Source: Pyrinomonadaceae bacterium
GTDB lineage: Bacteria > Acidobacteriota > Blastocatellia > Pyrinomonadales > Pyrinomonadaceae
NCBI GenBank assembly: GCA_036277115.1
Contig: DASUNM010000015.1
Span: 108,451 to 172,450, forward strand
DNA length: 64,000 nt
Reading direction: 5' to 3'
Numbering within the stretch: position 1 is the stretch's first letter; the number at the start of each line of letters is the position of its first letter. The notes under the pieces were generated by a model, which saw only the letters and a list, made by a program, of their open reading frames with translations, was not told where the DNA came from and ran no database searches. Made by a program: the position numbers and the translations under genes. Shown one piece after another: positions 35-23,554 of the stretch.

Positions 35-1291
35 TCATTGTTCAAAATCGAGACGAATGGCTTTGGGTGGGTGAGGCTGATTTGCCGTTGCTCTGTCCCG
101 GCGGAATGCCTCAGCGTAATTGCGCACGTCGATCGCCTTAGCAGAGATCACGTCAACGCGTTTATCGATTGCAATGGTGACGCGAACACTGCGTTGCGCT
201 GGCGCGAACCGAGCAACCTCAGAACTGGCTGGTGTCACTTTATGTTCGGGCGTGGCGTCAATTATGACCGCGCTCGCTTCCGGCGACTGAGATTCCTCCA
301 GCGACCTCCAATTGATCGCAAAACGAACCGGGCGCTTCGAGTCTTTCGGGCGAATTCGGACAATAATCCTCGAATGCTGATTTGAAGGCCCTGGAGCTTC
401 GATAAAGGATCCTTCCGTAACATTCTCGACCCTGATTAACGCAACGCCACACGGCGCACAACCCAGATTGCCGCGAACCTCAGGAAAGGCCGGCGCCAAT
501 TTGCTTGCGGTGACGTTTATCGTGCCAATACTCGTCGAATCGTCCGGAGACGAACCGCTCAAATAGACGATCAGGTATTTGCCTTCGGTTTCCACTCGCA
601 CAGTCATGGGACGAACCGGGCGAGGCGGCGGTCGCGGCGGCGGTAAAGCATCCAGTCTGGGCTCGATCTCAAGACTGCCCCCAGGTTTTAAGGTAACGGT
701 ACGCGTCACAACTGCATAGCCAGCTCTTGAGACAGTGATTTCATACTCGCCTGGTGGAAAAGCGACATCTTCGATCGCGCTTGCATACGAACCCACGTGC
801 TGGTTCCGATCGATATTCCTAACTTCGATGGCGGTGCCGTCCACGGTAGGCTGAACGGTCAGCGTCGCCTTCAAGAGCTCAAGTGTCAGCGTCAACGAGG
901 AAGTGTCGCCGGCCTTTAGATCGACAGTTTGCTCGGCATCCCCGTAGCCTGGATGGCGCGCCGTGATCGTATAGGACATCGGCGGCAGTGTGAGAACAAT
1001 GGTTCCGCTGGTATCTAGTTTTTGCGATTCGCCATTCAGCCAAACTGAGCTGTCGGCCGGACTCACTGCAAGGTACAACCTCCCGGGTTTGACTCTGGCC
1101 GACGCGGGCTTAGGGCTGGACGGACGGCCGCTCCCCTTCTTCCGTGGGTTAGTTGAACGGTTAGTGCCTGCGGGCGGCGGTGGTCGGGTAGCGTTTTCGT
1201 CTTGAGCCTGAAGGTCACAAACCAAACCGCTAAAAATAGACACGAACATCAGGCAACAAAAAGGAATCCGCCAGTTGTGTTTGTAACTCAT
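35..1291 (-). CDS. Membrane-anchored/exported protein with Pro-rich linkers and two PEGA-like repeats; last gene of the 17-kb cluster
   Basis: ORF 35..1363. The internal ATG at 1291 lies 10 nt after the upstream stop (1302) and is preceded by GAGG. N-terminal hydrophobic helix IPFCCLMFVSIFSGLV. PEGA-type segments YTITARHPGYGDAEQTVDLKAG and FPPGEYEITVSRAGYAVVTRTVTLKPG. Confidence 0.7.
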   Translation of the reverse strand: MSYKHNWRIPFCCLMFVSIFSGLVCDLQAQDENATRPPPPAGTNRSTNPRKKGSGRPSSPKPASARVKPGRLYLAVSPADSSVWLNGESQKLDTSGTIVLTLPPMSYTITARHPGYGDAEQTVDLKAGDTSSLTLTLELLKATLTVQPTVDGTAIEVRNIDRNQHVGSYASAIEDVAFPPGEYEITVSRAGYAVVTRTVTLKPGGSLEIEPRLDALPPPRPPPRPVRPMTVRVETEGKYLIVYLSGSSPDDSTSIGTINVTASKLAPAFPEVRGNLGCAPCGVALIRVENVTEGSFIEAPGPSNQHSRIIVRIRPKDSKRPVRFAINWRSLEESQSPEASAVIIDATPEHKVTPASSEVARFAPAQRSVRVTIAIDKRVDVISAKAIDVRNYAEAFRRDRATANQPHPPKAIRLDFEQ

Positions 1292-1301
1292 GGTTGAAGC
1301 C

Positions 1302-2753
1302 TCACAAATCCTTGGCGCATCGAAACCCTGTATTCGCGTAACCAACCAAGGCGCCCCGCGCATCCCACCCTTTTCTAAAGGTTGCTGTGGCCTTTCCGGG
1401 AGTACTGCCCCAATAGCCTCCGCGAATTACTCTTAGTTCGGCTTGATTTTGATCGGGCGCTTGTCCTCCGGGATACGCCCTGAATTCGGTTGCCGTCCAC
1501 TCCCAGGCATTTCCGATCATGTCCATCACGCCAAAAGGGCTTTTCCCGTCCGGATAAGAACCCACATTCGCAAAGTGGCGGACGGTGGCATCGCCGGCGT
1601 TCGCGACGTTGTTTCGCCATTGATTTCCCCACGGATACAACCGGCCGTCGGTGCCACGCGCCGCGAATTCCCATTCTTCTTCGGTCGGCAAACGTTTACC
1701 GCTCCACTGTGCGTACGCATTGGCGTCGTACCAATCAACGCCGGTAACGGGATTCTGGTGGGAGCTATTTGGACAATTGCCTTTGACCCAACCTGGCGGC
1801 AGCCGATGATTTGTCGCCTTTACGAACTTTTCGTAATCACGGCACGCAACCTCGTGCTGATCAAGAAAAAAGGGTCGGACTGTGACCATGTGCGCCGGCC
1901 TTTCATGCTCATCGCCCAGATCATTTCCCATCCTGAATTCGCCGCCCGGAACGTAGACCATGCCCGATGGCGGCGTGGGGATGACTACTGCCGGCAAAGG
2001 GCCCGCTCGTTTGGGACCGAAGACAATCGCGAACGCAGTTACCGCGATAACCGTCACGCCGACTGCGACTGTCACCGGCAACCATGGAATATTTCTTTTC
2101 CGAGGGGCCGCCGGTAAGACTGCTTGCCACGGAGCGGCAATGTACACGGCACGATCGTCGCGCTGGGCATCGGTTGCACCAGTGTTTGGCGGCGACGTTT
2201 CGTTCTTCGAGTTTGTCCCCTCGAAGGCGGCATCTTTGGACAACCGGGCTGACAGATCCTGCGAAACCTGCTTGCTGACGCTGGTTGATTGGGCCCCAAC
2301 TGAAGCCTCACAAAAAGGACATGCACTCCTTGGAGTGAGAATTAAGACTCCAATTTCCGGACATTGATGTTCGGCAGGGGCGGCAGCGGGATGCGTTGCG
2401 CATCCTGGGCAACTGGGAGCAATTCCGTTTTCAACAGTGATTGAATAAAGCTTTCGCCGGACGGGCACGGCTGATTCGATGCTTATCACCTGACACGCGG
2501 GACATAAGTAGCGTTTGGCCGTCGGTCGCTCGCAGACAAAGCATTCGGAGCGGCGCAAGAAACCATTCGTCACTTTCGAAGGCCAAAACGTCGCGCAGTC
2601 ACAGCAGTACTGCCACCAGGCCTGATCCGGAAAGCCACTCCCGATCGCGTGCCCGCCCTGTTCGCATGCCACCAACGAATCTCCAGCGGCCCGGAACCGG
2701 AGCTGGTGCTGCGGACAATAAAAAGTAAAGCTCTGCGTTGCTTCGGGTGACAT
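1302..2753 (-). CDS. Single-pass membrane protein: N-terminal 14-Cys zinc-ribbon-like module, TM helix, C-terminal FGE-sulfatase (SUMF1-type) domain
   Basis: 483-aa ORF. Residues 12-148 carry YC..C..GH..YCCDC..CxxCER..CxxC..CPGC..HxC..CPFC. TM helix WLPVTVAVGVTVIAVTAFAIVF. FGE-sulfatase-like motifs include GGEFRMGND, RVIRGGYWGS and GFRCAKD. Confidence 0.8.
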   Translation of the reverse strand: MSPEATQSFTFYCPQHQLRFRAAGDSLVACEQGGHAIGSGFPDQAWWQYCCDCATFWPSKVTNGFLRRSECFVCERPTAKRYLCPACQVISIESAVPVRRKLYSITVENGIAPSCPGCATHPAAAPAEHQCPEIGVLILTPRSACPFCEASVGAQSTSVSKQVSQDLSARLSKDAAFEGTNSKNETSPPNTGATDAQRDDRAVYIAAPWQAVLPAAPRKRNIPWLPVTVAVGVTVIAVTAFAIVFGPKRAGPLPAVVIPTPPSGMVYVPGGEFRMGNDLGDEHERPAHMVTVRPFFLDQHEVACRDYEKFVKATNHRLPPGWVKGNCPNSSHQNPVTGVDWYDANAYAQWSGKRLPTEEEWEFAARGTDGRLYPWGNQWRNNVANAGDATVRHFANVGSYPDGKSPFGVMDMIGNAWEWTATEFRAYPGGQAPDQNQAELRVIRGGYWGSTPGKATATFRKGWDARGALVGYANTGFRCAKDL

Positions 2754-2828
2754 GTTTCAACTGCGCCGTCTTTGTCAAAAGGAGCCCGACGAACCTTGAA
2801 TATCCCGGCTCGCTCGTCGCAATGATGC

Positions 2829-4592
2829 TCATCCCTCTGGATTAAGCGGTGAAGGTGATGCCTTCTCGCTTGCGCTTGAGATCACGGTAACAAAAAGCCT
2901 CTGGGACGTGCTCCCACCACGTCCGTCGTTTATTGTGACGTTTATGATCTTCTGTCCGGGCTCAACACCCGTCGAATTGAATATTGCGGTATCTCCTTTA
3001 TGAATGATCTCGCCGGCCGACGCTTTCCAGTCAAAGTAGAGAGGTGAGTCCCCGTCAGGATCGGTGGCAAAAACCCAGAGCTTTACCTGCCCACCAGTCT
3101 CTACGGTGAGGCTGTCGGCTGTGAAAAATTCAAGTTTCGGAGAATGGTTTGGCTTTACCTCAGGTGGTGCGCGCGTGGCTGTCGCGGGAGAGAATTGCCG
3201 CGGCAGTACTACAATCGTCAAATCTCCGCTAACCGCGCCTCCATGATTGTCAGTTACACGTAATGTAATTTTCACGGGAACAGGCGAAATAATGTGGCCC
3301 ATTCCCGCAGTGTTTAGGATTGCGGTGGAACCAGAATCGGAGTTCGTCTTTGCGATTTCCAACGCGGGTGACGAACTTTGCCAATCGTATGAGAGCATCG
3401 CGTTCGTAGTGCTCGCCTCAGCTAGAGCATACAAGGACACTATTTCTCCGACTCGTATCTGTTGATTGTTGCAATTGCAGCGCGGGGGAACTGTTAGGCT
3501 CGGCGGATTGTTCAGGACGTTGCGAGACACAACCGAAATCCGTTCTTGTCGGGACGCCGTTAATCCGAGTTCATCAGTCACGACCAATTCGATTGTAAGA
3601 TCAGTCGAGATCGCTTTTGGGATGATGCCATCCGTGTTTAGCAAAGCGTTCGCGCCGTCTCCGTTAATCGTGCCGGCAGATGAAAGCCAACGGTAGCGAA
3701 GTTCACCGCCATCTGGATCATCAGCCTGCGCTCTTAACGCGACGACCTGTCCTTGCTGAACGAGATGTTCACACTCAATTGCTCGAATGCGGGGCGGACT
3801 ATTCAGCCATTCCGTTAAGGTTTGCGAAACCGCGGCTACCGGCCCGCCCAGACCTACCAGAATTCCAAAAACACCAACGGCAATGCTGATGGTGGTTACC
3901 CAATGTGAAAACGTTCTGGGCCGGTGCACTCTTAACCACTCAAGCGGCAATTTACAGCGGTCAACCCACGTGCTTGAATTTGCGAATCCAGCGAGGTAAG
4001 CCAGGCTCTGCGGCTTGTCCGGCGCGTCGTGCTCATCCGGGGAGTCAGCGGGATCTTTCGCCGCGCCAACCTGTGTTAGCCACTCGTTGCAGAATGGACA
4101 TTCCAATCGGGGAGTTACGTATGTAATTCCCAAAATCGTGCATTCATGTTTAGCCAGGTTACTTGTGAGAGTCGCGACCAGACAGCCCGGGCAAACAGGA
4201 GACGCCCTTCCGTCTTGCAGAATCGCGAAGGACTTGCTTACTGAATTCTCGGACGCAATTGTCAGAAGCTTACAGTCGTTGCACAGAAACCATCGCGTGA
4301 CTGGGCGTTCACATTGCGAACATTGCGTATATGCGTCGTCACCTTCAAGGATCTCCCGTGGGACAAACTTCTCGCAATCGCAGCAGTACACCCAGAACTC
4401 CGTATACGGAAAATCGGTTGCAACTTCATGCCCGTTTGCACAGACGATGGTAGAGGCGCGCAGGGACGACACCGCTGCGCGCTCGGTCCTGCAATATACC
4501 TGTATTAGATCTGGCTTCGCGGTCGCGGTTGTGGTTGGTCGCATGTGAATCACGGACGAGCCCCCGCTTGTGCTCTGGGCCCCCGAAAACAT
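2829..4592 (-). CDS. Single-pass membrane protein: same 14-Cys module, TM helix, three PKD/Ig-like repeats
   Basis: 587-aa ORF. Residues 33-168 align with the Cys modules of the two neighbouring genes. TM helix WVTTISIAVGVFGILVGLGG. Three repeats of about 90 aa contain DPDGGELRYRW, LSYDW and DPDGDSPLYFDW. Confidence 0.75.
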   Translation of the reverse strand: MFSGAQSTSGGSSVIHMRPTTTATAKPDLIQVYCRTERAAVSSLRASTIVCANGHEVATDFPYTEFWVYCCDCEKFVPREILEGDDAYTQCSQCERPVTRWFLCNDCKLLTIASENSVSKSFAILQDGRASPVCPGCLVATLTSNLAKHECTILGITYVTPRLECPFCNEWLTQVGAAKDPADSPDEHDAPDKPQSLAYLAGFANSSTWVDRCKLPLEWLRVHRPRTFSHWVTTISIAVGVFGILVGLGGPVAAVSQTLTEWLNSPPRIRAIECEHLVQQGQVVALRAQADDPDGGELRYRWLSSAGTINGDGANALLNTDGIIPKAISTDLTIELVVTDELGLTASRQERISVVSRNVLNNPPSLTVPPRCNCNNQQIRVGEIVSLYALAEASTTNAMLSYDWQSSSPALEIAKTNSDSGSTAILNTAGMGHIISPVPVKITLRVTDNHGGAVSGDLTIVVLPRQFSPATATRAPPEVKPNHSPKLEFFTADSLTVETGGQVKLWVFATDPDGDSPLYFDWKASAGEIIHKGDTAIFNSTGVEPGQKIINVTINDGRGGSTSQRLFVTVISSASEKASPSPLNPEG

Positions 4593-4638
4593 CTTGTCAG
4601 CTTCCTACACTCTATTAATCGGACCTTGTCTCGCGAAA

Positions 4639-6603
4639 CTATTCGTATTCGCTGCCGGCTGAAAGTTGTTGGGCTTCGTTCAGTTTCTCTTTGATCTTCT
4701 CGAGGTTCATGTTGGCAGTTCCGACGGCCTGTGGACTGAGCACCCATTGGTACTCTGTTATCGCGGTCTCAAAATCCTTCTCGATCATTGCAATGTCGCC
4801 CAACCACGCGTGAGGGCGCGCCCAGTCAGGCGCGAGCTGAACTGCTTTCTTGTAGAAAACCTTAGCCTCAGAGTAGTTTCTTTCCATGTAATATGAGGTG
4901 CCTAAATTGTTGTAAGGATTTGCCCAATTGGGATTGCGGCGAACTGCGTCAGAATAGAGTGTCCGCGCCGTTGAATAGTTCTTGAGCGATGCGTAGACCA
5001 GCCCCGCGCTGTTGGCAGGTAGAGCCCATGACGGATCCAGTTGGGCCGCTTTTACCCAGTGCTCAATCGCAGCTTGATTCTGGTTAGCCAAGTAGGCCAC
5101 TCGACCCTGGCAGTAGGCACTCTTTGCGCTAATAAGACTGTCACCAGGCTTCAATTCAGTAGCCCATGACATCGCTCTCGTGGCGATTTGCCATTCCGAG
5201 GCTGGCGCTTCTTCATAGCCAGGCTGAAGCAGGTTTTGGGTAAGCTGCGTGGCCTGCCTCGTCAGTAACGGCACCAGTCGCTCTCGGTACTTGCGCAACG
5301 TCTCGTCATTGGCGCCGTTGGCTTTCAGTTGGTTGTAGAGTTGATAGGCGTTCTGGCTTGCAGGCGGAAATAAATTGCCTCTCGCTATTGCGTCGTCAAG
5401 CTGCTTCTCGACGCTGTTACTTCCCACGGTGTTAAGGGAAACAGCAATAATCACAACCAGCAGGAACACCAATCCAATGCCTGCCATCAGAACCTTGACT
5501 GCGGTTGACAGAGGTGATGGGATTCGCGAAGTGGAAGGCGACGCCGACCAGGAAGTAGTGTCGATCGGCGAAGCCGTCACGTTCTCAACGTCACCAACAA
5601 ACGATCCAGCAGGTGTCGATCCGGGGACAGGTAGGTTCTCCGGTGCAGTCAATTCAACTGGTAGAGTGACGCTTTCATAGTCAGCCGCCCCAGAGGCTCC
5701 GAAGGCCAGGCCACAGCGTCCACAAAATTGCTCGGTGGGTTTTCCGGCGGTACCACAGTTGGGGCAGACGATAAGTTCTTGCGTAATGCGCTGCGGCCCG
5801 GCGAGCTTGATTTCGATTGCGCCTGCTTCTTTGACGACCCACCCGGCCTCAGTCCGATCGACTGACGCAGGTCGAATGACAATAATCTCGCCCGCTGATG
5901 GGTTGTCGCAGTTAAAGAGTTCGTAATAGGTGTCGTAATACTGCCGCTTCGATTTAAGTTTCCTGGCCTTAGGAATCGCGAAGGACAAGTTCAGGCCGGG
6001 CACACCCGGCAAAAGGACGTAGTCGCCGTCGGCCGACGCTGTTAGTTGGTTTCCAGCGCTATCCAATTTCAGTTTGGTTGTCGTCTTGAGACTGGTTAAG
6101 CACTCTGACACCGTGCACGGAAAATCCGGCAGGCGTTCAAGGACTTCATCGCAGAAAGGACAAGTGGAAAAGCTCGTCACGAAAGAGGCGCCGTAGTCGC
6201 GACAGTCGTGGTCGATGACGGAATGTGAAGGCTCTTGCAGACAGCCCGGACAGGTGGGAGTCGGTATGCCGTTCGTGATCGCAAAGACCTTGCGACGACC
6301 TGGTTCGTCTGATTCGACACTAATGACATTACAGTCCCCACAGACATAGCGGCGGACTACGTTGCGTTCACAAGCTGGACATTCTTTGCTGGCGGCTTCT
6401 TTTTTTGCCGTATCAACGAGCCAGCAATGCTGGCAGTCACAGCAATATTCCCACGACGAGCTGTCCGGAAAATTCTTGGCGAGAGCATGGCCACCTGACG
6501 CACAGAGAATTGGCTTACTCGACGGGGCGTCGAAACCCACTTTATGGGTGATGCAATAAGCGCGAATTACGCGAGCGGTAATCGCGTCGGCTGGGGCAGC
6601 CAT
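4639..6603 (-). CDS. Single-pass membrane protein: 14-Cys module, shared YY..YYE..PSAG domain, double zinc ribbon, TM helix, periplasmic TPR repeats
   Basis: ORF 4639..6690. The ATG at 6603 has a GAGGAG RBS and avoids overlap with the upstream gene. Cys module encoded at nt 6151-6558. CPNCG..FCGRCG at nt 5710-5766. TM helix VLMAGIGLVFLLVVIIAVSL. The C-terminal part has TPR-like repeats (AYCQGRVAYL, ALPANSAGLVY, NPYNNLGTSYY). Confidence 0.75.
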   Translation of the reverse strand: MAAPADAITARVIRAYCITHKVGFDAPSSKPILCASGGHALAKNFPDSSSWEYCCDCQHCWLVDTAKKEAASKECPACERNVVRRYVCGDCNVISVESDEPGRRKVFAITNGIPTPTCPGCLQEPSHSVIDHDCRDYGASFVTSFSTCPFCDEVLERLPDFPCTVSECLTSLKTTTKLKLDSAGNQLTASADGDYVLLPGVPGLNLSFAIPKARKLKSKRQYYDTYYELFNCDNPSAGEIIVIRPASVDRTEAGWVVKEAGAIEIKLAGPQRITQELIVCPNCGTAGKPTEQFCGRCGLAFGASGAADYESVTLPVELTAPENLPVPGSTPAGSFVGDVENVTASPIDTTSWSASPSTSRIPSPLSTAVKVLMAGIGLVFLLVVIIAVSLNTVGSNSVEKQLDDAIARGNLFPPASQNAYQLYNQLKANGANDETLRKYRERLVPLLTRQATQLTQNLLQPGYEEAPASEWQIATRAMSWATELKPGDSLISAKSAYCQGRVAYLANQNQAAIEHWVKAAQLDPSWALPANSAGLVYASLKNYSTARTLYSDAVRRNPNWANPYNNLGTSYYMERNYSEAKVFYKKAVQLAPDWARPHAWLGDIAMIEKDFETAITEYQWVLSPQAVGTANMNLEKIKEKLNEAQQLSAGSEYE

Positions 6604-6670
6604 AGCAATGTACTCCTCTTGGGAAACCTGTCGACTCGGGATTATCAGCGTCAGCGTGTTAGCTCGGGCT

Positions 6671-7837
6671 CTAACGCACTTCGAGAACACCTTTCTCTCT
6701 CAACTGCCAACCTCCGGGAACGGTTGAGACGATGGCCGGGTCGATTATCCAGACATCTCCCGCGGAGGGTCTCTGGCATTCGTAATATCTCTCGTAGTAC
6801 GAATGAAACTCTTGCTTCGTCTGGAACTGAGCCACGCGCGGCACGACAAACAAAGGCTGAGCGTCATCGGCAACGCTTGCATCACGAATCAGGACCAACT
6901 CGCCTTTGCCGTCGATGTCATTCACCAGAATTCCGTTTTGGAAATCGGGTTTTACGACCGTTGAATTTCGCCTTTTCTTGTCCAGGTACTCATTGACCGA
7001 GGCGGGAAACTCAGGTTCAATCGGCTGTGGCGTTAGTCGTGAGTAGTCGTCGAAAGCCTGCCGAACCGTACCGCCGCCATAACCACCGTCGGGGCTTTGC
7101 CTGATTCGCCGTCCCAGCGCCTGCAGTTCGCCTTCAATCGATTCCAATCGTCCAGATGTTTTTTGCTGCTCATTCAGTGCTGCGCTGAACTGTTTGTTCA
7201 ACTCGTCGTGGCGGCGCTTAACGCCGGTTACATGGGCTTTCACAAGTTCGTTCACGTGGTCATCAAATTTCGCCCAGTAGCCTTTGCGCAGTCTCAGAGC
7301 ACCGAAGACGGCAAGCGCTATGAGGCCTGCTGCTGCAATTCCTCCGGCGATTGGCCAGATTAGACTCAGCAAGCCACCCCCTTCATCGCCACGTCCGGGA
7401 GACACCTCAGATCCAGAGGATTGCGTCTGAGAATCCGCAGGGCTGACAGTTGTCTTTGGGACACTTGCGGCAAAAGTCTCAGCGTCGGCGATCGCCCTAT
7501 CCATCGCCTTCACTTTGTCGCCGCGCAAGAAAGTTTTACCCCTCGCGACCACCTGTTGTTTCTCAGCGTCAATTGCCTCGCGGAGTTCGGTAGCAGCGTT
7601 CTTCACTCTTTGTTTGTCACTCGAGTTCTTCGCGGACGACAAAAATCTATTCGCAGCCGTTTCCAGTGACCTGCCTAACTGGGGCTCTTTGGTTTTGAGG
7701 GCTTTTTCCAGATCGCTTAAAGATTGCGCCAAAGCGGATTTGCTTTCTGCTTCTGTGGGCTGTGCGCGAACCGTGAAGGACCAGCCCACGCAAAAACAAA
7801 TCACTAGAAGGTAATTCAAATATGACGGAGCTCTCAT
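6671..7837 (-). CDS. Signal peptide, coiled-coil ectodomain, TM helix, cytoplasmic coiled coil, C-terminal YY..YYE..PSAG domain
   Basis: ORF 6671..7891. The ATG at 7837 has a GGAGG RBS. Signal-like YLNYLLVICFCVGWSFTVRAQ. TM helix LLSLIWPIAGGIAAAGLIALAVFGAL. The C-terminal 115 aa resemble the middle domain of the 4639..6603 protein. Confidence 0.7.
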   Translation of the reverse strand: MRAPSYLNYLLVICFCVGWSFTVRAQPTEAESKSALAQSLSDLEKALKTKEPQLGRSLETAANRFLSSAKNSSDKQRVKNAATELREAIDAEKQQVVARGKTFLRGDKVKAMDRAIADAETFAASVPKTTVSPADSQTQSSGSEVSPGRGDEGGGLLSLIWPIAGGIAAAGLIALAVFGALRLRKGYWAKFDDHVNELVKAHVTGVKRRHDELNKQFSAALNEQQKTSGRLESIEGELQALGRRIRQSPDGGYGGGTVRQAFDDYSRLTPQPIEPEFPASVNEYLDKKRRNSTVVKPDFQNGILVNDIDGKGELVLIRDASVADDAQPLFVVPRVAQFQTKQEFHSYYERYYECQRPSAGDVWIIDPAIVSTVPGGWQLREKGVLEVR

Positions 7838-7856
7838 CTTTGCCTCCTCAGCAGTG

Positions 7857-10800
7857 TCAGCTCTCTTTACTTTGCACGCGATAATTTCCATTCACTTGCG
7901 CGAGCGTGTCCAGAAAGTCCTTGTTGCTGCGGCGGGAATAAAAGACTTCGGACAAAAAGTGATTGATTGGCGAGACCTCAAGCCGCTCGATGCGCCCACT
8001 GAGTGTGGATACGAAATCATCGACTCGCCCGTTGATATTGGTCCACGCTTCTCCTGGCATGTTGTCCTCTTCACCAGCACGAACATTGCCAATGGAGGTG
8101 AAAACCGAAAGCACGGGACTCAAGGGAACTTCGAGATCTGCGGGAGCATCAAATCTGCCATTCTCGACTTGTTCGACGCCCGGGAACTTTTGTTCGAACG
8201 TCTCAGTCCCCCATCGCTCACACCAGCGGATGGTGGCCGGAGGCGAGCCGCTTAATTCCAGGCCTTCCAGGGTGAATCCCGCGTAGGGCGTTGCGGATGC
8301 ACCATCTCTCGATGCGCGCGTGCGCGCGGCATTCAGAGCGCCTAAGGCCACGTTAGTCTTGGCCTTACTCAGGTTCTCCTCGTTCAGCAGGATTAGGTTG
8401 TAGATCTTGAGCGCCTCTAGATATTCCCGCTCTTCTTCCGTGACCACCGCTGCCAATTTTTCTTTCAGTAAGTTGAGAATTCTTTTGGCTTCCTTCTCGA
8501 GGTGTCCGCCAAGGCGCTTGAACTCACCGAACAGCATCAATCCCCAACCGTTGCCGCCCAAAATCAGGTTGATGCCACTTGAGGGCTTCAGCTTCTGCTC
8601 GACGGCTGCCGCGCATGCTTGCAGCAAGGCGTAGGCGAGAATGTGTTGAAAAAAGAGGCGGGTGCGGTATCTCTGGTAGGACTGCGTGCCCATTCCTTTC
8701 CGCAAAATTGCGGATTCACGCTCTTGAAACTGCTGATCATTGAGACTGCTGATCCAGACCGAATACGTGATGTCGAGGTCAAAGCTGGGATCCGGATTCA
8801 GCAGTTTTAGTTCCGCGTCATCATTCGCACCCTGGAGTAATCGGCGCAGATGTTTCTTGAACTCACTCGCCCCAAGCAGATCGTTACCGAAATTCTTCTT
8901 CGCAAATTGAAAGAAGGTCTTGCCGGCAACGCGGATGCTGTCCAGGACCAGAAATCGCCGGTCGTGACTGACAGCGATGTCCGCCGTGCCCCCACCAACA
9001 TCGACGAAGACTTCCATCGTCGCTTTGTTGCCAACCGATCCGATCGATTCAGCAATCGCAGTGCTCTCGTCTACTCCTTCTTCATAATTCACGTCCTTAC
9101 CCAAGCCAGTTCCATAACAGATGTTACGTACCCGTTTCAGGGCCTGCCTTACCTTGTTGTGATAGCTGTCGCGATCGTCCTTTCGGAAGGCGAGCGGAAA
9201 CGTAAATACGTATCGATCGATAAGCATCCGCTTGCTAAAGAACATCTCGGCGTGCGCATACAGCAACGTGAGTTGCAGAAAGAGTGTTCGCCACGGCTCG
9301 GTCTTGCCATCGAGATCCCACTTTAGGTTGGCATGCGGCTTCCAGGTTTTGTTGAGGTCCCCTTGATACAGTCGTTGCTCGAGATCTCTATGCAACCCTG
9401 GGATGTCTACTTTGAAAATCTCGGCGACTGAAACGTCCTCCGATTTCAGCGCGTCGGTGAGGTTGGGATCACTCCTGCGCGATAAGAGAATAGTCGGGAA
9501 GAAACCTTTTGTGGTAGTCGCATTCCACTTATAAGGAAAGAAGCCCGGTAGTTCCAACGCCTCGCTCAGATCGCCACGCTTCCCCCACACGGGCCTGGGC
9601 GCAATGGTGAATCTCAAGATCTCCGGCTGACTGTCGCTGAACGCGTAGGCCAGGCAAGTGTTGCTGGTCCCGAAGTCAACGGACAGTTTCGTATCAAGCT
9701 CGCGATTAGCGGTTTGGTCTCCGCCGAAGTCCGCAAGGAAAAGTATGCCGCGCTCTCGCTCGCCATTGTCGGTCAACGCGAGAGCACGCGGTTGGTTCGG
9801 GACCTCCGAACCGGAGAGGACGCTTACGTACTCTTCCTCTTCGACATCGACCAATTTGCCGAGCCGGCCGTTCTGATCCACCAGGTGCCAACGGCCGGAG
9901 TCTTCCTTAGTGCCAAACCCGTACGCCGCGTACAAACGCCATTCACTCGACACCTTGGGCGGCCAGATCGCGAGCGACGAAGCGGCAAGACCCTTGGCGT
10001 ACGATGGTCGTGTCTGCCACTTCACTTCCCTGCCCGGCATGACCGGAATCGTCCATTCCACCGATGCGCCTTCAAGGCTTGGGAGCGCGGATACTTTTTC
10101 CAGGTTAGTCAGAATCTCGGGAAAGTGCCGAATAAATTCGCTTCTTATCGGCGCAAGACACACCGCCGCATCCTTCTCGGTGACCACCGGATCGCGTAAT
10201 TCCATTTTGTGAACCGATCGGATGTGCGCGGCCTGGGTATCTGAAGTCTTCGGAATCTTGCACCAGTGCGGAGTGTCGCTGAGGAACAGATCCTTCAACA
10301 AAACGATTTCATCGTTTTCAGATATTCGGCAACTAAATCGGCGGCCGGGTAACTCGACTACGATTTCCTTATCGTTCAGTTTCCGATACTGGTAGGGCGC
10401 GGGTCCGCTGGGAACGGTAGCCGCTTTCATCCACGGTTGCAGTTCGGGCAAACCATCCAGCAGATAAAAGATGCGGCCAACATTTTTCTCGTCATCCTGC
10501 TCAGTCGAGCGCTTGGCTTTACGCAACGGATAAAGCTGGAGCAACTCGTCGCTTTCCCAGTGTTTGAGCCCAGGAACCTCCCAGCTCGACGGATCCGTTT
10601 CAAGACTCCCGGTTAGATCAATTCGCCCTTTGAAGTTAGCTTCACAGAAATCGTACAGACGATCCTGAAGCGTCCGGCTTGAGACTGCGTATTCCGCAAT
10701 TAACCTGAGGTGGGCATGGAAGTCCTGGTTTTCCTTGTCACTGGTGAGAAGAATGCGCCGGCTTCGGGTCCAAGACAGTCGATCGTCCAGTAGGTAATCG

Positions 10801-11309
10801 GCAAGCGTCTTGTCCTTTTGCCAGGCAGTCCGATCTCGCGCCGGGAAAAAGATTACCGCGGGATAGTATGCGCCAACCACGGTTTCGTTGTGTTGGAGAA
10901 GCTTGAGAGACCTTGGCGCCTGTTCGCGAACACTGGGATAGGTGCCACTAAGAGCTTGCCAAAGATCGCGATCATAGTTTTGCTGAAGGTAGCTCTGTTT
11001 GAACTCCGCCAGGTGCGCAACTCCAAAGTAATGAAGGAGAAAAAGCGTGATCCACTCTTCGACCGCTGTTGAAACCTCGTCCGCAAAAGCTCCCGCTTCC
11101 GCGCCTGTTTTGACCGGCAGGTCGAGCACTTTCCGAAACGCGTATCCCGCCGCCCAAGCGGTTGGAAAAGTCTCGAAATATTGCGGGTCATAGTCGGGAC
11201 TTGTTAGATATTCAGTTCGCACAGCACGAAAGGACCGCTTTTCGGCAATCCCAGCGCCACCACCCAAGATTCCGGAATTCAGAAATTCCCTTCGATTACC
11301 GTTATTCAT
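7857..11309 (-). CDS. Giant actin/Hsp70-fold ATPase-like protein with an N-terminal region of about 540 aa of unknown function
   Basis: ORF 7857..11321 starts at TTG; the ATG at 11309 has GGAG 7 nt upstream. Phosphate-1 VDFGTSNT is encoded at nt 9657-9680. DESTAIAES precedes phosphate-2 VDVGGGTAD at nt 8979-9005. ILGGNGWG is the adenosine-type motif. Confidence 0.8.
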   Translation of the reverse strand: MNNGNRREFLNSGILGGGAGIAEKRSFRAVRTEYLTSPDYDPQYFETFPTAWAAGYAFRKVLDLPVKTGAEAGAFADEVSTAVEEWITLFLLHYFGVAHLAEFKQSYLQQNYDRDLWQALSGTYPSVREQAPRSLKLLQHNETVVGAYYPAVIFFPARDRTAWQKDKTLADYLLDDRLSWTRSRRILLTSDKENQDFHAHLRLIAEYAVSSRTLQDRLYDFCEANFKGRIDLTGSLETDPSSWEVPGLKHWESDELLQLYPLRKAKRSTEQDDEKNVGRIFYLLDGLPELQPWMKAATVPSGPAPYQYRKLNDKEIVVELPGRRFSCRISENDEIVLLKDLFLSDTPHWCKIPKTSDTQAAHIRSVHKMELRDPVVTEKDAAVCLAPIRSEFIRHFPEILTNLEKVSALPSLEGASVEWTIPVMPGREVKWQTRPSYAKGLAASSLAIWPPKVSSEWRLYAAYGFGTKEDSGRWHLVDQNGRLGKLVDVEEEEYVSVLSGSEVPNQPRALALTDNGERERGILFLADFGGDQTANRELDTKLSVDFGTSNTCLAYAFSDSQPEILRFTIAPRPVWGKRGDLSEALELPGFFPYKWNATTTKGFFPTILLSRRSDPNLTDALKSEDVSVAEIFKVDIPGLHRDLEQRLYQGDLNKTWKPHANLKWDLDGKTEPWRTLFLQLTLLYAHAEMFFSKRMLIDRYVFTFPLAFRKDDRDSYHNKVRQALKRVRNICYGTGLGKDVNYEEGVDESTAIAESIGSVGNKATMEVFVDVGGGTADIAVSHDRRFLVLDSIRVAGKTFFQFAKKNFGNDLLGASEFKKHLRRLLQGANDDAELKLLNPDPSFDLDITYSVWISSLNDQQFQERESAILRKGMGTQSYQRYRTRLFFQHILAYALLQACAAAVEQKLKPSSGINLILGGNGWGLMLFGEFKRLGGHLEKEAKRILNLLKEKLAAVVTEEEREYLEALKIYNLILLNEENLSKAKTNVALGALNAARTRASRDGASATPYAGFTLEGLELSGSPPATIRWCERWGTETFEQKFPGVEQVENGRFDAPADLEVPLSPVLSVFTSIGNVRAGEEDNMPGEAWTNINGRVDDFVSTLSGRIERLEVSPINHFLSEVFYSRRSNKDFLDTLAQVNGNYRVQSKES

Positions 11310-11347
11310 CGTGATCTCCAATATCCGTTCGACCGGTTAACCTAAAT

Positions 11348-13051
11348 CTACGCGGCGCCGACCGCTCGCATCCGTTTCTGAGTTCGGGAAAATAACCTTG
11401 ACCATACCAGCCTTAGATATTCTCCACGAGTAAACTCGGCGGTCTCCGGGCACCAGTCGCCGAATTCGAAAGTAGATACACGGATCGACGATCGGCCAAG
11501 CTCAAGTTCCCCTTTTGCTTCTCTGCTCGTTAATTTCTTGGCCGTCTTTGCTGTGATCTCCTTCAGACTGTGCGGATCGCTTGAGAGGAACGGCCGAAGT
11601 TTGGCCACATCTTCGCCGCTCCACCCCACGGTGTGATCCGGATTGGGATCGAGCGTCGTATCAAGGAACTTGGCGAGCAGATTGGCAGCGCCATTGAATC
11701 GCTTCCAATCTTCGAGCTTGCGATTTTCGTTATCGGCGTACACTTCGCGCAGGCGTTTAATCTCTTTGGGCCAGGTGCGCGCCGGCAGGTCCCACGGAAT
11801 TTGCTGGGTAACAAGATGGTGCATGACCGCAGCAGACAAGAACACCGCTTCCGGCTCGATCTCAGTCTCACCGGCCGTGTAACGAGGAAGATGACGCAGA
11901 CTCATTTTTTCCGAGTCGAGATCCGGCGTTGATGCGCCGATCACATACGACTCCGGATTCCCGGTACCCGCGCGGGAGAAAAAGTTTAGCGCCGCCAGCG
12001 CGCCAACTATTTCCGCCGAGTTGAGTGGATTTCTTTGACTCTTACCGCCATTGCTCCAAACCTTTAATTTGTCAGGCTCAGGCTTGCCGGCAAGATAAAG
12101 TTCGTCAAAGTATTCCGCGCTGTGATCGCGGTAATATGCGAGGGCTTGCCGAGCGCGCGCCTCCATCGCTTCGGGTTCGGCGTAAAAACCGAGAAGGATC
12201 TGCTCGACGAGCTTTCGCTTATCCTCGATTGGCAGTCCATTGAATGCCGGTTTGTCGCCATGTTCTTTCGCAAGATCGTCAATCTGCTGGGTCGTCGGGT
12301 AATCGTCCTTAAGCGCGCCAAACGGAGGCTGCGGCGGCACACAGTACGGTGTCAGCAGGCAGGCGCCAACGCGCCAATCCCACGTCTGATTTTCTTTCTT
12401 GAGCGTGCCGAGATATTTGCCCATGACAGGAACTCCGCACGCGCCTGTCCCGCCATGAAGACTTCCGCAAAGGAAGAAGTTCGTGCTGACGTTTTGAAAT
12501 GCCGTCAGACTGCACGCTTTGCCACCGGGTGAATTCTCGTCGCGCAGCGATTCAGCGAAAACCGCCATAACCGCGGCGCCAATAAATGGCTTCTGATAGA
12601 AGCCGCGGTCAATTTCGACGTCAAGGTCTTTCTTTTCATAAAACGGAGAGAGAAATGGGAGCGAACTCTTGGTGGCGCCATATCTTGAATCGAGAATGCC
12701 GCCCAGGTTCTTCACAATGTTGTCAGAGTTAGAAGCCTGGGGTAGCTGCAACGGATCCAAGTGGCGAACTCGCATATCAATGTCCATCGCCCATCTACTA
12801 CTGGCCATACCGCCGGTTTGCTGCCCATTCAGCAACTCTTGCAGCTCCTGATAATCCTTTAGGCAATTTCCGAGAGCGACAGCCGCACCGGAATTCAAAT
12901 CCGGATCCAATCTCCAAATCTGCAAGGAATGACCGGCGCTCGTGAGTACGTCCTTCTCACTGTGCGTCGGGAAACCGATTGCCAGCAGACGAACCAGCGC
13001 TTCGGCCACCTTGGTGCCACTGCCGCCAACTGCAATAAAAACGTTGCGCAT
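11348..13051 (-). CDS. Divergent tubulin/FtsZ-superfamily GTPase (Tubulin_2-like)
   Basis: 567-aa ORF. N-terminal strand plus T1-like loop VFIAVGGSGTK (nt 13010-13027). T4 tubulin-signature-like HGGTGACG (nt 12434-12457), comparable to FtsZ GGGTGTGAAP. Confidence 0.8.
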   Translation of the reverse strand: MRNVFIAVGGSGTKVAEALVRLLAIGFPTHSEKDVLTSAGHSLQIWRLDPDLNSGAAVALGNCLKDYQELQELLNGQQTGGMASSRWAMDIDMRVRHLDPLQLPQASNSDNIVKNLGGILDSRYGATKSSLPFLSPFYEKKDLDVEIDRGFYQKPFIGAAVMAVFAESLRDENSPGGKACSLTAFQNVSTNFFLCGSLHGGTGACGVPVMGKYLGTLKKENQTWDWRVGACLLTPYCVPPQPPFGALKDDYPTTQQIDDLAKEHGDKPAFNGLPIEDKRKLVEQILLGFYAEPEAMEARARQALAYYRDHSAEYFDELYLAGKPEPDKLKVWSNGGKSQRNPLNSAEIVGALAALNFFSRAGTGNPESYVIGASTPDLDSEKMSLRHLPRYTAGETEIEPEAVFLSAAVMHHLVTQQIPWDLPARTWPKEIKRLREVYADNENRKLEDWKRFNGAANLLAKFLDTTLDPNPDHTVGWSGEDVAKLRPFLSSDPHSLKEITAKTAKKLTSREAKGELELGRSSIRVSTFEFGDWCPETAEFTRGEYLRLVWSRLFSRTQKRMRAVGAA

Positions 13052-13067: not shown

Positions 13068-13385
13068 CTAAATAATTTCGCGCCGCCAAGGGCTCACCAG
13101 ATGACCGGTAAACATGCACAGAATGTAGATAATCCACGCCATTACAATTCCTTTCATCAACCCCCCGACGCCCACGAAGTTGAAGAAGTTCCTGGTCATA
13201 TACCAAACAACCAGCAGTACGATCACGACCGGAATTAGCCCGACCACGATTAGCAGCATCGTCTGTCCTCGGCTCCACGCCTTCTGAACGATGTTGATGG
13301 CCATGTACTTCCTGAGCCATTTGAAGCCCAACATCACGAGCGCGCAGATCGCCGCGATCACCAGAGCTGCTATGACCCAGTTCAT
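13068..13385 (-). CDS. Small 3-TM membrane protein
   Basis: ORF 13068..13559. The ATG at 13385 avoids overlap with the vWA gene. Three hydrophobic helices are present. Its stop lies 17 nt before the tubulin-like start. Confidence 0.6.
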   Translation of the reverse strand: MNWVIAALVIAAICALVMLGFKWLRKYMAINIVQKAWSRGQTMLLIVVGLIPVVIVLLVVWYMTRNFFNFVGVGGLMKGIVMAWIIYILCMFTGHLVSPWRREII

Positions 13386-13489
13386 CGCAGTTTCTTCGCA
13401 TCCTTCCTCGTCACAAGCGTCCAGGAATAATTCGAGAAAGCCTGAGCCTTGAATTAGAATTGCCAACACGCGCGTATCTCCCTTCTCAC

Positions 13490-14995
13490 TTAATCCGACG
13501 GCCCAATCCGCAAGTAGGCCTTCGCGACCACTTGATCCTTTGCTGTCGAGTTGTTCCACAGCCCAAGAAGCGCTGTCTCAAGATTGAATGTCCGGTTAGC
13601 AGTTTCCGGCGTTGTATCGAGATCGGTAGACCAACTCTTGATCCATTCCGGCGTACCTTGGTTGAGATTGACGCGACCCTCTACGCTGTAGAACCGCCAG
13701 GAAGGTTCTCCTGTTCCCGGTGGATACGACGCGGTCGCCTCCAAAACGAGATTGCCACCTTCAAGATGCGCGCCGGTTATGTTGAGCTCGGGAAATCTCG
13801 CGCCCGATTTACTGTCACTTGGGGGGTGGATTGGCTTGAGTTCCCATTTGATCAACCGGACAAGTTCCTGTTCATTGCCCGCATCGAGAGCATGAGAAGA
13901 CCAGGGCACTTTTACTTGAATCGTAAACGGCTTCGGTCCGGACCGCTCGGTATCAACATCCACTTGCATCGTGAATCTCTGCGGCGGGCCGCCCTGGTTT
14001 TTCGCCTTGTGGAGCGCCCCTCGTGATTCTTTGGGAACGGAAATTTCGAACTGGGCCGCAGCGTCCGTGTATGGGAAAGATAAATTCAACTCTCGGATGC
14101 AATCTAAGCAGTTGTCTATCAATGGACGTAGACGCTCTTTGAGGGATCGCACCAGCGAATCAAGCGCAACCTGATCGGGCGAGAAGATGTAAAGGAAGAA
14201 GGGGCGGAAGGAGGATGGATTGTTGTTCCTGGTCTCGTACGGGATGGCGGCGCCGCTCACTTCTGAATACACCTTGCCGCGAAAATCTGCGCGAACGCCC
14301 AGCACGCATCCACCCCAACCCGCCTTCAGTAACTCCGCAATCTTTTGCCTGACGCAAAATTGATCGGAGCCGGCGTTACAGTTTTGGTTCGTATCTCCTT
14401 TTTTGGTGGATTGCACGCCGTCAGTAACCAGGATTTGGAACCGAGCTGGCGGCGGCGGCTCCGCGGAATCGGTGCCGTTGCTTCGAGTTGGAGTTGCCGC
14501 CTGCTTTGAACCAGTGCCGTTGGGCTGGTAGCCGACTTTGAATGCGCTGATGGCGCCCGACAGGTTTGTTTCACCGGCACGATAAACGGAAGGGTCTTGC
14601 GAGGCAGTAGTCAGATCCATATCGGGAAGCGGCGGCCCAATTGCGGAGCCTACTCGGCGGACGGAGACGCGCACGTCAGGACCCGCGAAAGTTCCAGTGG
14701 CAAAACGAAGCTCTCGCAATGTCTTGCCGAAAATTGTCTGGCCGTCGCGTGACACGTAGCCGGCCATGCTCCCGCTTTCATCCAGATAGACAATGAGTTC
14801 GTTAGTAGTCGCGATCGATGGCGACGGCGGAAGAGATGTCGCCGGCTTGTTCTTCACCTCAGGCGGCCATTCCGGCGCTGGAGTGCCACATCCTGTAAAC
14901 AAAACCAAACCGCTTAGAACCAGCACGTGCCACGAGACGCTCAAGAGTCGGGTTCGCGCATTGATAGCTTGGGTGTGTTTGTAGTGTCTAGTCAT
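13490..14995 (-). CDS. vWA-domain lipoprotein
   Basis: 501-aa ORF. Lipobox LFTGC. MIDAS motif DESGS at nt 14768-14782 (ELIVYLDESGSMAG), followed later by ILVTDGVQS. Confidence 0.8.
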   Translation of the reverse strand: MTRHYKHTQAINARTRLLSVSWHVLVLSGLVLFTGCGTPAPEWPPEVKNKPATSLPPSPSIATTNELIVYLDESGSMAGYVSRDGQTIFGKTLRELRFATGTFAGPDVRVSVRRVGSAIGPPLPDMDLTTASQDPSVYRAGETNLSGAISAFKVGYQPNGTGSKQAATPTRSNGTDSAEPPPPARFQILVTDGVQSTKKGDTNQNCNAGSDQFCVRQKIAELLKAGWGGCVLGVRADFRGKVYSEVSGAAIPYETRNNNPSSFRPFFLYIFSPDQVALDSLVRSLKERLRPLIDNCLDCIRELNLSFPYTDAAAQFEISVPKESRGALHKAKNQGGPPQRFTMQVDVDTERSGPKPFTIQVKVPWSSHALDAGNEQELVRLIKWELKPIHPPSDSKSGARFPELNITGAHLEGGNLVLEATASYPPGTGEPSWRFYSVEGRVNLNQGTPEWIKSWSTDLDTTPETANRTFNLETALLGLWNNSTAKDQVVAKAYLRIGPSD

Positions 14996-15029
14996 CGGCT
15001 ACCACTTCGGTCGTAATGCTCGGTACTCC

Positions 15030-15516
15030 CTACTGCGCAGTTGCGTGAGCGGCGAGGGGGGTTCGTCCGGCAAATGGCAGAGACATCGCGGCCGCCCGCT
15101 CCTCGTTGCTGAGGAATGGAGACGTGTGGACAGCAGCGTCCGCGTGGGACATCAACAGTTGTCCCTGCGCAGAAATGAGGACGCCCAGGAGAAAGAACAA
15201 GCCGCCGACAAGAACTCCAACCGCCACGCCGATCATGAGGCAAAAAGAAGAAGACGACTCCAGCCGCGGACTGACTGGCCGGACTCGGTCCGAAAGGTGC
15301 AGACGACTGGCTGCTTGAGCTGGCAGCAGCGCCAACGATGAACCAAAACATGAAAATGACTGCGCCCAGAATGACGCCAACGACTTTGACGGTCATGCCC
15401 AATCCGGTCATAACGCGCGCCGCTCGGTAAAGATCTAAATACCGGTGGACCAGAGCACTGCCTGGCCTTTCACTGTTTGTGTTGCCCGATGTCGTAGCGG
15501 CGTATGTGGAATCCAT
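15030..15516 (-). CDS. Small 2-TM membrane protein, apparently split by a 1-nt frameshift in a T5 run (pseudogene or assembly error)
   Basis: ORFs 14992..15516 and 15030..15380 overlap in different frames. The first has a plausible N-terminus and TM1. The second has a plausible TM2 and tail. Removing one T from TTCTTCTTTTTG (A5 at 15242-15246 on the plus strand) joins them into about 161 aa. Confidence 0.5.
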
Positions 15517-16663: not shown

Positions 16664-17124
16664 TTCGGGGACTCCTGCGTAACCAACAACTTGTTTTCAC
16701 TTGCGCGATTGCCGTCGCTGACGCGAGAGCATTCAAAATGGACCTTCCGATACTCCACCGGCGTCATGCCGTAGGCGGCCTTGAAGCTTTTAGTAAATTG
16801 GCTGGGATTCGGAATGCCTACAGCCGCACCAATCTGCTGAATCGAAAGAAAGCTGGTTTCCAATTGATCTTTCGCCTTTTGCAAACGCACCAGCGTCAGA
16901 TACCGCTGTGGAGACACTCCCGTCTCAGCCTTAAAAAGGTGAGCCAGGCGCCACGGAGAAAGATTTACCTCGGCACTCATGTCTCGTAATCCCAACTTGC
17001 GCTGGAATGAGCTTTCCAAGAACACGCGCACAATCTGCACTCTTCGGTCTCGTCCCTTCGCCGCCAAAACTTTGGCGCGATTCTGTTCAGAGTTCTCAAC
17101 ATTTTTGTCGCGCTTGTTCGACAT
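16660..17124 (-). CDS. Short AraC/XylS-family HTH regulator (DNA-binding domain only)
   Basis: 154 aa. NLSPWRLAHLFKAETGVSPQRYL and FLSIQQIGAAVGIPNPSQFTKSFKAAYGMTPVEYRK form the typical double HTH. Confidence 0.8.
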   Translation of the reverse strand: MSNKRDKNVENSEQNRAKVLAAKGRDRRVQIVRVFLESSFQRKLGLRDMSAEVNLSPWRLAHLFKAETGVSPQRYLTLVRLQKAKDQLETSFLSIQQIGAAVGIPNPSQFTKSFKAAYGMTPVEYRKVHFECSRVSDGNRASENKLLVTQESPK

Positions 17125-19067: not shown

Positions 19068-19118
19068 CGCTCTTTCAGCGGTCCGGTCTGTTGACAATGA
19101 ATTTCGACGCAATACGTT

Positions 19119-23336: not shown

Positions 23337-23554
23337 ACAGTGAACCGGTGTCGTTGGTTGAATGGCTAGTGCGCAGCTCGCGTCACCGGGAGGCGAGTTG
23401 GAGCAACAGAGAAGTACCTCAAGTGGTTGTCCTTTTAACATGGATAAGCGGCAGATTCAATGAATTTGGCCGCCACTGAACAATATCGTTACCAGCAACA
23501 GGGTAGTCCTCTTTTGAGGACTACCCTGTTGCTATTTGCGGAAAGGCAGACGTC

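Follow-up and report, generated by a model that had tools for sequence, protein, structure and literature searches.

A 64,000-nucleotide (nt) stretch of the genome of a Pyrinomonadaceae bacterium, a soil acidobacterium (contig DASUNM010000015.1, positions 108,451 to 172,450 of the forward strand; hereafter the window) encodes on its minus strand a 1150-amino acid (aa) protein whose C-terminal half is predicted to be an ATPase of the ASKHA superfamily, and whose gene stands directly downstream of a tubulin-like gene. The protein represents a new, widespread family and architecture inside a known superfamily. We consider it very probable that this giant protein is an ASKHA ATPase and that it partners the tubulin-like protein within a conserved gene cassette. 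The explanation that best accounts for the whole, and about which our confidence is evenly balanced, sees in it the ATPase component of an envelope-associated machine, conserved but so far undescribed, where it would serve as an FtsA-like adaptor.

The open reading frame (ORF) at 7857..11321 on the minus strand is genuine. Its probable start is the ATG at 11309, giving a coding sequence of 7857..11309 with its stop at 7857; a GGAG lies 6 nt 5' of this ATG and the N-termini of homologues agree with it, and a TTG at 11321 is an alternative start. The product is identical to P0001, a 'hypothetical protein' from a Pyrinomonadaceae metagenome-assembled genome. A preliminary description of this DNA had placed four nucleotide-binding motifs here in canonical ASKHA order, with about 220 aa between phosphate-1 (P1) and phosphate-2 (P2), and the translation bore out the motifs, their positions and their order, with a measured spacing of 225 aa. 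These motifs, all on the minus strand, are P1 (VDFGTSNT, aa 544-551, nt 9657..9680), connect-1 (DESTAIAES, aa 747-755, nt 9045..9071), which aligns with 'EEPMAAA' of MreB, P2 (VDVGGGTAD, aa 769-777, nt 8979..9005) and the adenosine motif (ILGGNGWG, aa 916-923, nt 8541..8564). D545 and G547 of P1, E748 and S749 of connect-1, D770, G772 and D777 of P2, and G919 and N920 of the adenosine motif are invariant in 28 relatives of 14-54% identity and likewise across a 43-member family alignment, in which conservation runs along the entire length. We regard the motif set as far beyond chance.

The gene boundaries also followed the preliminary description, with one adjustment. The gap from the stop of the tubulin-like gene (11348) is 26 nt to the TTG and 38 nt to the ATG, the range given there. 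The reported overlap between the ASKHA stop and the next gene stands for the extended ORF at 6671..7891, where it measures 35 nt; the real start of that gene is probably at ~nt 7837, the later Met at which its signal peptide begins.

Assigning the C-terminal half required family profiles, as single-sequence searches of Pfam, NCBIfam, PADLOC and the PDB were too weak. The window protein alone gave only a sub-threshold MreB match near P2 (Pfam E = 0.0044; PDB 7bvy E = 0.4). When a 28-sequence profile was compared with the PDB, it matched MreB (7bvy, E = 2.2e-11), Hsp70 nucleotide-binding domains (NBDs; ~1e-5) and FtsA (1.4e-4), as well as EutJ and an actin-family protein. A 43-sequence profile matched MreB at E = 5.6e-6 and also the mortalin NBD, to which P1 and P2 could both be aligned. 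The whole-chain AlphaFold2 model was confident (pLDDT 83.7, pTM 0.76), and its Foldseek search of the PDB returned 471 matches at E <= 1e-3, of which the 50 best listed were all ASKHA-fold proteins. The top matches were the NBDs of DnaK, BiP and mortalin (E = 2e-9 to 6e-7, best 2.3e-9, probability 1.0). MreB and Arp2/3 were also matched with probability 1.0 and had the highest target-normalised TM-scores, 0.51-0.57 (MreB 0.57).

Curated family models stayed below their thresholds. All 43 family members weakly matched the Pfam MreB model (PF06723). The window protein scored 16.3 bits with it (cut-off 27), covering model positions 142-180 only, and 16.7 bits with the NCBIfam mreB model (cut-off 365). 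Pfam HSP70 (PF00012) matched a single one of the 43 members at E = 0.33. For FtsA (PF14450 / TIGR01174) the best value among the 43 members was E = 3.4e-4, PF14450 was weakly matched in 23/43, and hhalign against FtsA reached a probability of 92.8, limited to 68 columns around P2.

From the profiles, the AlphaFold2 model and Foldseek we conclude that the C-terminal half belongs to the ASKHA superfamily, with a predicted intact MreB/Hsp70-type NBD at aa 538-1000 (nt 8310..9698, minus strand) in which the catalytic motifs are correctly placed and aligned with those of the matches. The actin/Hsp70-type ATPase half of the preliminary description is thereby upheld as to fold. Its comparison with Hsp70 is refined in one respect, in that the nearest relative by sequence is MreB, then Hsp70, then FtsA; the absence of an Hsp70 substrate-binding domain (SBD) that it had reported did hold, as none was detectable. 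We infer from motif conservation that the domain binds and hydrolyses ATP. A Lys-Trp pair ('NLKW', aa 663-664, nt 9318-9323, minus strand) between P1 and connect-1 is invariant in all 28 relatives, and K663 possibly corresponds to the catalytic lysine of Hsp70. No transmembrane (TM) segment or signal peptide was predicted in the ASKHA protein, indicating that it is cytoplasmic.

The ATPase core is flanked on both sides by family-specific domains. The preliminary description had divided the protein at residue 540 and recognised no motif in the N-terminal part. The division was roughly right, with the folded boundary at ~aa 538, and a further C-terminal domain was found at aa ~1003-1146; the N-terminal part proved to be folded and conserved, and no known family or structure matched it. 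When aa 1-545 were modeled separately with AlphaFold2, the mean pLDDT was 81.2 and residues 50-530 were predicted with high confidence. Foldseek with this model found nothing at E <= 1e-3 in the PDB or BFVD, the best PDB matches being noisy Ig-like sandwiches (best E = 0.012, probability 0.2), and Pfam and NCBIfam left the N-terminal half entirely uncovered.

Within this half, aa 50-260 (nt 10530..11162, minus strand) form a predicted alpha/beta domain (pLDDT 75-93) in which W52, F58, E85 and W86 are invariant in the 43-member alignment. They are followed at aa 263-530 (nt 9720..10523, minus strand) by a beta-rich region that, from its DSSP strands, probably consists of beta-sandwich domains. 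The second half of the beta-rich region (aa ~355-540) is common to a distant clade of the family, and W52, P387, P450, W457 and G521 are invariant even into that clade. The C-terminal extension, also alpha/beta (aa 1003-1146, nt 7872..8303, minus strand), has conserved W1029, W1033, D1082, N1093, P1114 and Y1124, and these C-terminal 145 aa had no match in Pfam or profile-versus-PDB searches.

The first 49 residues (nt 11163..11309, minus strand) are disordered in the model (low confidence, pLDDT <50) and carry the motif (K/R)-x-F-L-N-x-G-I-L-G. Its F-L-N-x-G-I-L-G portion is conserved across the 43 sequences, with N11 invariant and L10, I14 and G16 at least 90% conserved. The N-terminal 'NRREFLNSGILGGGAG' peptide of the ASKHA protein mimics a twin-arginine signal. 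A twin-arginine translocation signal in the 'RREFLN' peptide was rejected: the peptide is not a signal peptide, because homologues do not conserve the RR and tubulin-ASKHA fusions (P0090) carry the motif inside the chain. Going by the alignment, it is a conserved linear motif.

Searches for homologues showed how widely the protein is distributed. An initial set of 119 clusters came from Pyrinomonadaceae and other Acidobacteria, nearly all of them full-length (~1110-1190 aa) apart from a small number of truncated fragments and a single fusion of 1689 aa; the named members were all annotated "hypothetical protein". When 1.84 billion representatives were searched exhaustively with a profile, 1044 matched at E <= 1e-3, 257 of them with E <= 1e-10 and 90 with E <= 1e-30; the family comprises ~1,000 clusters at 50% identity in several phyla, again nearly all "hypothetical". 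The distant clade, of ~1050-1300-aa proteins, shares at least aa 355-780 with the window protein (hhalign of A1 against P0216, probability 99.1, aa 355-775). It includes Gloeobacter violaceus Glr2966 and members from Aphanocapsa, Poribacteria, Aminicenantes, Gemmatimonadaceae and Anaerovibrio, and carries no functional annotation beyond one Anaerovibrio member named "rod shape-determining protein". Plasmids of the cultured cyanobacteria Picosynechococcus sp. PCC 73109, PCC 8807, PCC 7003 and NIES-970 also encode members. A phage origin was considered and rejected, as tblastn returned no phage homologue.

The gene next door, the obligate upstream partner, encodes a 567-aa Tubulin_2-like protein (11348..13051, minus strand) with GGSGTK and GGTGACG loops. 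We collected 26 loci and scanned their ORFs with hidden Markov models (HMMs) built from the window neighbours and their orthologues. Of these loci, at least 16 were confirmed in a genome scan with a narrow ASKHA alignment, and four of the 16 (L019, L021-L023) encode unrelated ~430-aa ASKHA proteins. In 20/20 scanned loci that had upstream DNA, the gene directly upstream of the giant ASKHA gene was a homologue of the tubulin-like gene, a count that includes two loci in which this gene is split or frameshifted. A lipoprotein homologue lies further upstream in 18 of the 20. A conserved core in the order lipoprotein, 3-TM protein, tubulin-like protein, ASKHA protein is kept in the window and in L001-L013, L015-L018, L020, L025 and L026, whose sources include Acidobacteriota, Gloeobacter, Picosynechococcus plasmids, Gemmatimonadota, Rhodothermales and a rumen bacterium. 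On the Picosynechococcus sp. PCC 73109 plasmid (L026, NZ_CP014003.1 88740-105696), for example, the same layout appears as genes of 409, 170, 509, 1100 and 302 aa, all annotated 'hypothetical protein', with a TM2-domain protein two genes further downstream; the 509-aa gene upstream of the ASKHA gene matches Tubulin_2 at E = 9e-4.

The two proteins are also found as single polypeptides. At least five tubulin-like/ASKHA fusion representatives, from both clades, were identified (P0090, P0134, P0145, P0239 and P0262), along with two weaker cases (P0255 and P0259), and the fusion P0090 is 58% identical to the window tubulin-like protein over 551 aa. That the synteny holds strictly from phylum to phylum, and that both clades contain fusions, argues strongly that the two proteins are physical partners, a much closer link than the co-expression with the tubulin-like gene suggested in the preliminary description. 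In L016 (5262-7091) and L025 (7175-8990) the tubulin-like gene consists of two overlapping ORFs; the gene may truly be split there, or the cause may be a frameshift or an error in sequencing.

The identity of the partner was approached through its orthologues. The Gloeobacter orthologue glr2965 (35.3 bits, E = 1e-8) and the L007 orthologue (30.8 bits) pass the 27-bit cut-off of Pfam Tubulin_2 (PF13809), both also match PF00091, and both are homologous to the window tubulin-like protein at E = 1e-26 to 1e-35. The glycines of the T1 (GGxG) and T4 (GGTGA) loops are invariant in the tubulin-like proteins. These matches indicate that the upstream partner is probably, at the level of sequence, a very divergent member of the tubulin superfamily.

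The remaining conserved genes of the cassette encode membrane or exported proteins. A small protein of ~133 aa with three TM segments (13068..13469, minus strand; start approximate) precedes the tubulin-like gene, and a ~130-165-aa protein of this type separates the lipoprotein gene from the tubulin-like gene in ten of ten loci inspected (the window and nine others). The lipoprotein itself (13490..14995, minus strand) has an FTGC lipobox and MIDAS-like DxSxS...TDG residues, and HMMs placed homologues at the equivalent site in 17 other loci. We tentatively describe it as vWA-like from its DxSGSM and TDG motifs; the VWA_2 model reached only E ~0.2, in two orthologues. Downstream of the ASKHA gene, gene E (6671..7891, minus strand) encodes a signal peptide, a periplasmic coiled coil, a TM segment and a cytoplasmic region with a conserved C-terminal domain of ~110 aa. 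This domain is kept downstream of the ASKHA gene across the Acidobacteria clade and recurs within the following gene F (BLASTP 1e-13). Gene E had weak DUF948 matches in the window and in its Gloeobacter equivalent, and the equivalents in two distant-clade loci (Gloeobacter L005 and plasmid L026) resemble TM/coiled-coil proteins, with weak sub-threshold matches.

Three consecutive paralogues with a receptor-like layout follow at 1302-6690 (minus strand), each with a common ~170-aa Cys-rich cytoplasmic module, one TM helix and a variable outer domain. In gene F (4639..6690, minus strand) the Cys-rich multi-zinc-ribbon module comes with an E-type domain, the TM segment and, in the periplasm, TPR repeats. 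The second paralogue (2829..4592, minus strand) has PKD/Big outer domains, and the third (1302..2753, minus strand) an FGE-sulfatase (C-type-lectin-like) outer domain. The last gene of the same-strand run (35..1363, minus strand) encodes a PEGA/CarboxypepD_reg protein with a homologue in L012.

Together these genes are part of a same-strand array of 12, from an AraC-type helix-turn-helix (HTH) gene (16660-17124, minus strand) to the PEGA gene, in which successive genes overlap or are separated by <=76 nt. The junctions between the AraC-type gene and the next gene, and between the 174-aa and lipoprotein genes, are 4-nt overlaps. Terminator and promoter scans of the array were no better than chance. 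The second gene encodes a 356-aa protein without a family match (15593-16663, minus strand), and the third a 174-aa TM protein (14992-15516, minus strand). Homologues of the 356-aa protein sit downstream within other cassettes (L001 19197-20138; L010 13119-14078), and it appears to be a mobile accessory of the system. The AraC-type protein has a small paralogue at 17495-17986 (minus strand), and in L007, a distant locus, a similar AraC HTH of 146 aa (5250-5690) stands ahead of the cassette; it may be a dedicated cassette regulator.

Candidates for the biological output of the system are a conflict or defence response, surface sensing and envelope remodelling. Just upstream of the window cassette lies a 1230-aa protein with TPR and CHAT (caspase-like) domains (19749-23441, minus strand; PF12770 E = 5e-60), adjoined by a sigma-70 region-4-like protein (19119-19739, minus strand) and a possible anti-sigma membrane protein (18204-19112, minus strand). 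CHAT-TPR proteins are typical of conflict systems. Neighbours of a defence or conflict type within ~10 kb of other cassettes were McrBC upstream in L001 (115-3337), HicAB downstream in L025 (17885-18322), NERD, Uma2 and a DUF433/DUF5615 (toxin-antitoxin) pair around the L005 cassette (15961-17121 and flanks), and an RHS/YD-shell protein downstream of the L007 cassette (22806-23321).

A parallel for the central pair is offered by FtsA, which couples FtsZ to membrane proteins. As in FtsA-FtsZ, an actin-fold and a putative tubulin-fold protein are encoded side by side and would act at the membrane; in the present family, however, the order is reversed, with the tubulin-like gene first, neither protein is orthologous to its counterpart, and fusions of the partners occur. 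We treat the parallel as a functional analogy. By this analogy, the ASKHA protein and the tubulin-like GTPase would form a stoichiometric cytoplasmic complex, in which the ASKHA protein would be an actin-fold, ATP-dependent adaptor or clamp that links membrane proteins to the tubulin-fold GTPase, the latter being either a polymer or a switch. The novel N- and C-terminal domains would dock the cytoplasmic zinc-ribbon and 'E-domain' tails of the single-pass receptors, so that binding of an extracellular ligand would be converted to nucleotide-dependent assembly inside the cell. This specific FtsA-like mechanism is put forward tentatively, and we would not bet on its details. A bolder version, which we find rather doubtful, is that the actin-fold ATPase and tubulin-fold GTPase make up one obligate two-nucleotide machine, in some lineages a single polypeptide, that may co-assemble or co-polymerise at the inner membrane face when variable extracytoplasmic receptors signal to it, an ancient, multi-phylum and hitherto unrecognised device such as an assembly-based immune or surface-sensing switch.

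Several observations weigh against an envelope-associated machine of this kind. ATP hydrolysis, binding of the tubulin-like protein and docking of receptor tails are each proposed from genes and predicted structures. The window tubulin-like protein matched Pfam Tubulin_2 at E = 0.024 (14.3 bits, below the 27-bit cut-off) at the T4 loop, hhalign against E. coli FtsZ aligned the T4 loop only with a probability of 3%, and tubulin-like profiles against the PDB gave CetZ at E = 0.34, also at the T4 loop only; the tubulin assignment therefore rests on the Tubulin_2 scores of the orthologues. Lipoprotein profiles had no match in the PDB, leaving the vWA assignment unsupported there. HMMs found the Cys-rich receptor paralogues in the Acidobacteria clade only, which makes them accessories and not core components. 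As to a defence role, the eight cassette proteins had no match at E <= 0.1 in PADLOC-DB 2.0, and defence-gene neighbours occurred at some loci and not at others. Finally, a chaperone-like cycle is equally compatible with the fold, because the structural matches rank Hsp70 NBDs first.

Such a cycle would make the protein an Hsp70-like remodeller, opening and closing with ATP, with the beta-sandwich and C-terminal domains in place of the SBD, and remodelling or unfolding the tubulin-like protein or receptor tails, instead of scaffolding them, as a conformational threshold switch of the sort proposed for conflict systems. The resemblance to Hsp70/DnaK extends from the Foldseek ranking to the order of P1, connect-1, P2 and adenosine motifs, comparable lobe I and II inserts, the alignment of both phosphate motifs to mortalin and the invariant K663 as a possible catalytic lysine, and tubulin and HSP70 components both occur in NTP-dependent conflict systems (PMC7159879). 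The window protein nevertheless has neither SBD nor lid, no DnaJ or GrpE is encoded in the cassettes examined, and MreB is ahead of Hsp70 by sequence profile, where the HSP70 model itself was matched by that one member; we judge a remodeller unlikely. The protein might instead be a cytomotive actin-like filament, as are MreB, MamK and ParM, possibly running beside tubulin-like filaments and positioning or moving an envelope complex. MreB is a ~340-aa single-domain polymer, and MreB/Mbl (PF06723) shares with the window protein the ASKHA fold and the DxGTxNT, EExxAA-like and DxGGGTxD motifs, is its best sequence-profile match and, with Arp2/3, gives its top target-normalised TM-scores. Against this, the window protein has ~540 N-terminal and ~145 C-terminal extra residues, larger inserts and another genomic context, and the ~690 extra residues around the core would have to leave both longitudinal interfaces free. 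To our knowledge, moreover, no polymerising actin is fused to a second NTPase, and we find a filament quite improbable.

Two further assignments are more remote still. SrfB (PF07520) belongs to the SrfABC 'toxin' operon of Proteobacteria, whose SrfA (465 aa) and SrfB (1007 aa) resemble the tubulin-like/ASKHA pair in size, with SrfC at 894 aa (PMC6950479). SrfB apparently shares an ASKHA P2-type region with the window protein, and sporadic sub-threshold matches fell on profile positions 542-680 of 992 (P0191 E = 0.0087, one A1 member E = 0.0063, P0354 E = 0.2). The window protein itself had no match to PF07520, the best of its relatives reached 14.5 bits (positions 542-679) against a threshold of 27.1 in the P2 region only, and no partner of SrfC size is present in what is a different operon with a different distribution. 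The lead was not confirmed when followed further: three homologue searches, among them one with P0191 that gave only seven relatives, and tblastn of plasmids yielded no relative annotated SrfB, and a Pfam scan of six relatives of P0191 (P0195 and P0352-P0356) lent no confirmation. We regard a distant SrfB-type component as very improbable. A metabolic ASKHA enzyme, either a sugar/acid kinase or a Ppx/GppA-type phosphatase, would explain the exopolyphosphatase matches and the weak matches to Ppx-GppA (9/43) and EutA (3/43). These are confined to the P2 loop, the conserved context has no metabolic genes, and the GGGT-x-D and (D/E)E-x-x-A motifs and structural matches place the protein in the MreB/Hsp70/FtsA branch, so that a metabolic role is scarcely credible.

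The cassette was also compared with described systems built from similar parts. FtsZl1/Tubulin_2-vWA operons encode a ~1000-aa FtsZl1 with a coiled coil, often together with a novel P-loop GTPase, and were predicted to form a membrane-associated complex (Makarova & Koonin 2010, PMC2875224). They resemble the present cassette in placing a divergent Tubulin_2-type protein beside a putative vWA protein and membrane proteins, whereas the cassette tubulin-like proteins are 470-580 aa and that paper mentions no actin/Hsp70-fold partner. Its Gloeobacter FtsZl1 entry is glr0982, and glr2965 is absent from its list. The DO-GTPase/GAP1-N2 conflict systems of Kaur et al. 2020 (PMC7159879) are NTP-dependent, are defined by one or two TRAFAC DO-GTPases plus a GAP1 protein, and have tubulin and HSP70 as non-overlapping themes. 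They use tubulin, vWA, HSP70-fold, zinc-ribbon and FGE-sulfatase (FGS) domains and variable components, as the window cassette does if its tentative tubulin-like and vWA-like assignments are right, whereas the cassette lacks the DO-GTPase and GAP1 and always joins the tubulin-like protein to the ASKHA protein. A conserved Walker-A motif is missing from all 12 operon proteins, and no GTPase match was found in Pfam or NCBIfam; membership in these systems was rejected, as the operon has no P-loop protein. Full-text literature searches found no description of a tubulin-like/ASKHA pairing, and the cassette is apparently an undescribed system.

The two great families of cytoskeletal and cytomotive proteins are nucleoside triphosphatases (NTPases) of actin fold and of tubulin fold, and we know of essentially no dedicated bacterial partnership between them beyond FtsA-FtsZ. 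The pair described here is strictly syntenic and repeatedly fused, and it extends over Acidobacteriota, Cyanobacteria, Gemmatimonadota, Rhodothermales, a Selenomonadaceae-type anaerobe (Anaerovibrio) and candidate phyla. It has no name, no curated family and no solved structure, and more than 600 residues per protein are of unrecognised fold. Because the cassette also resides on plasmids of the cultured Picosynechococcus strains, genetics and biochemistry may be feasible. If the two NTPases do act as a coupled switch or co-polymer tied to variable receptors, they would constitute a type of signalling or immune machine across the envelope that is new, and would provide a new family in which to study the evolution of actin-like and tubulin-like proteins.

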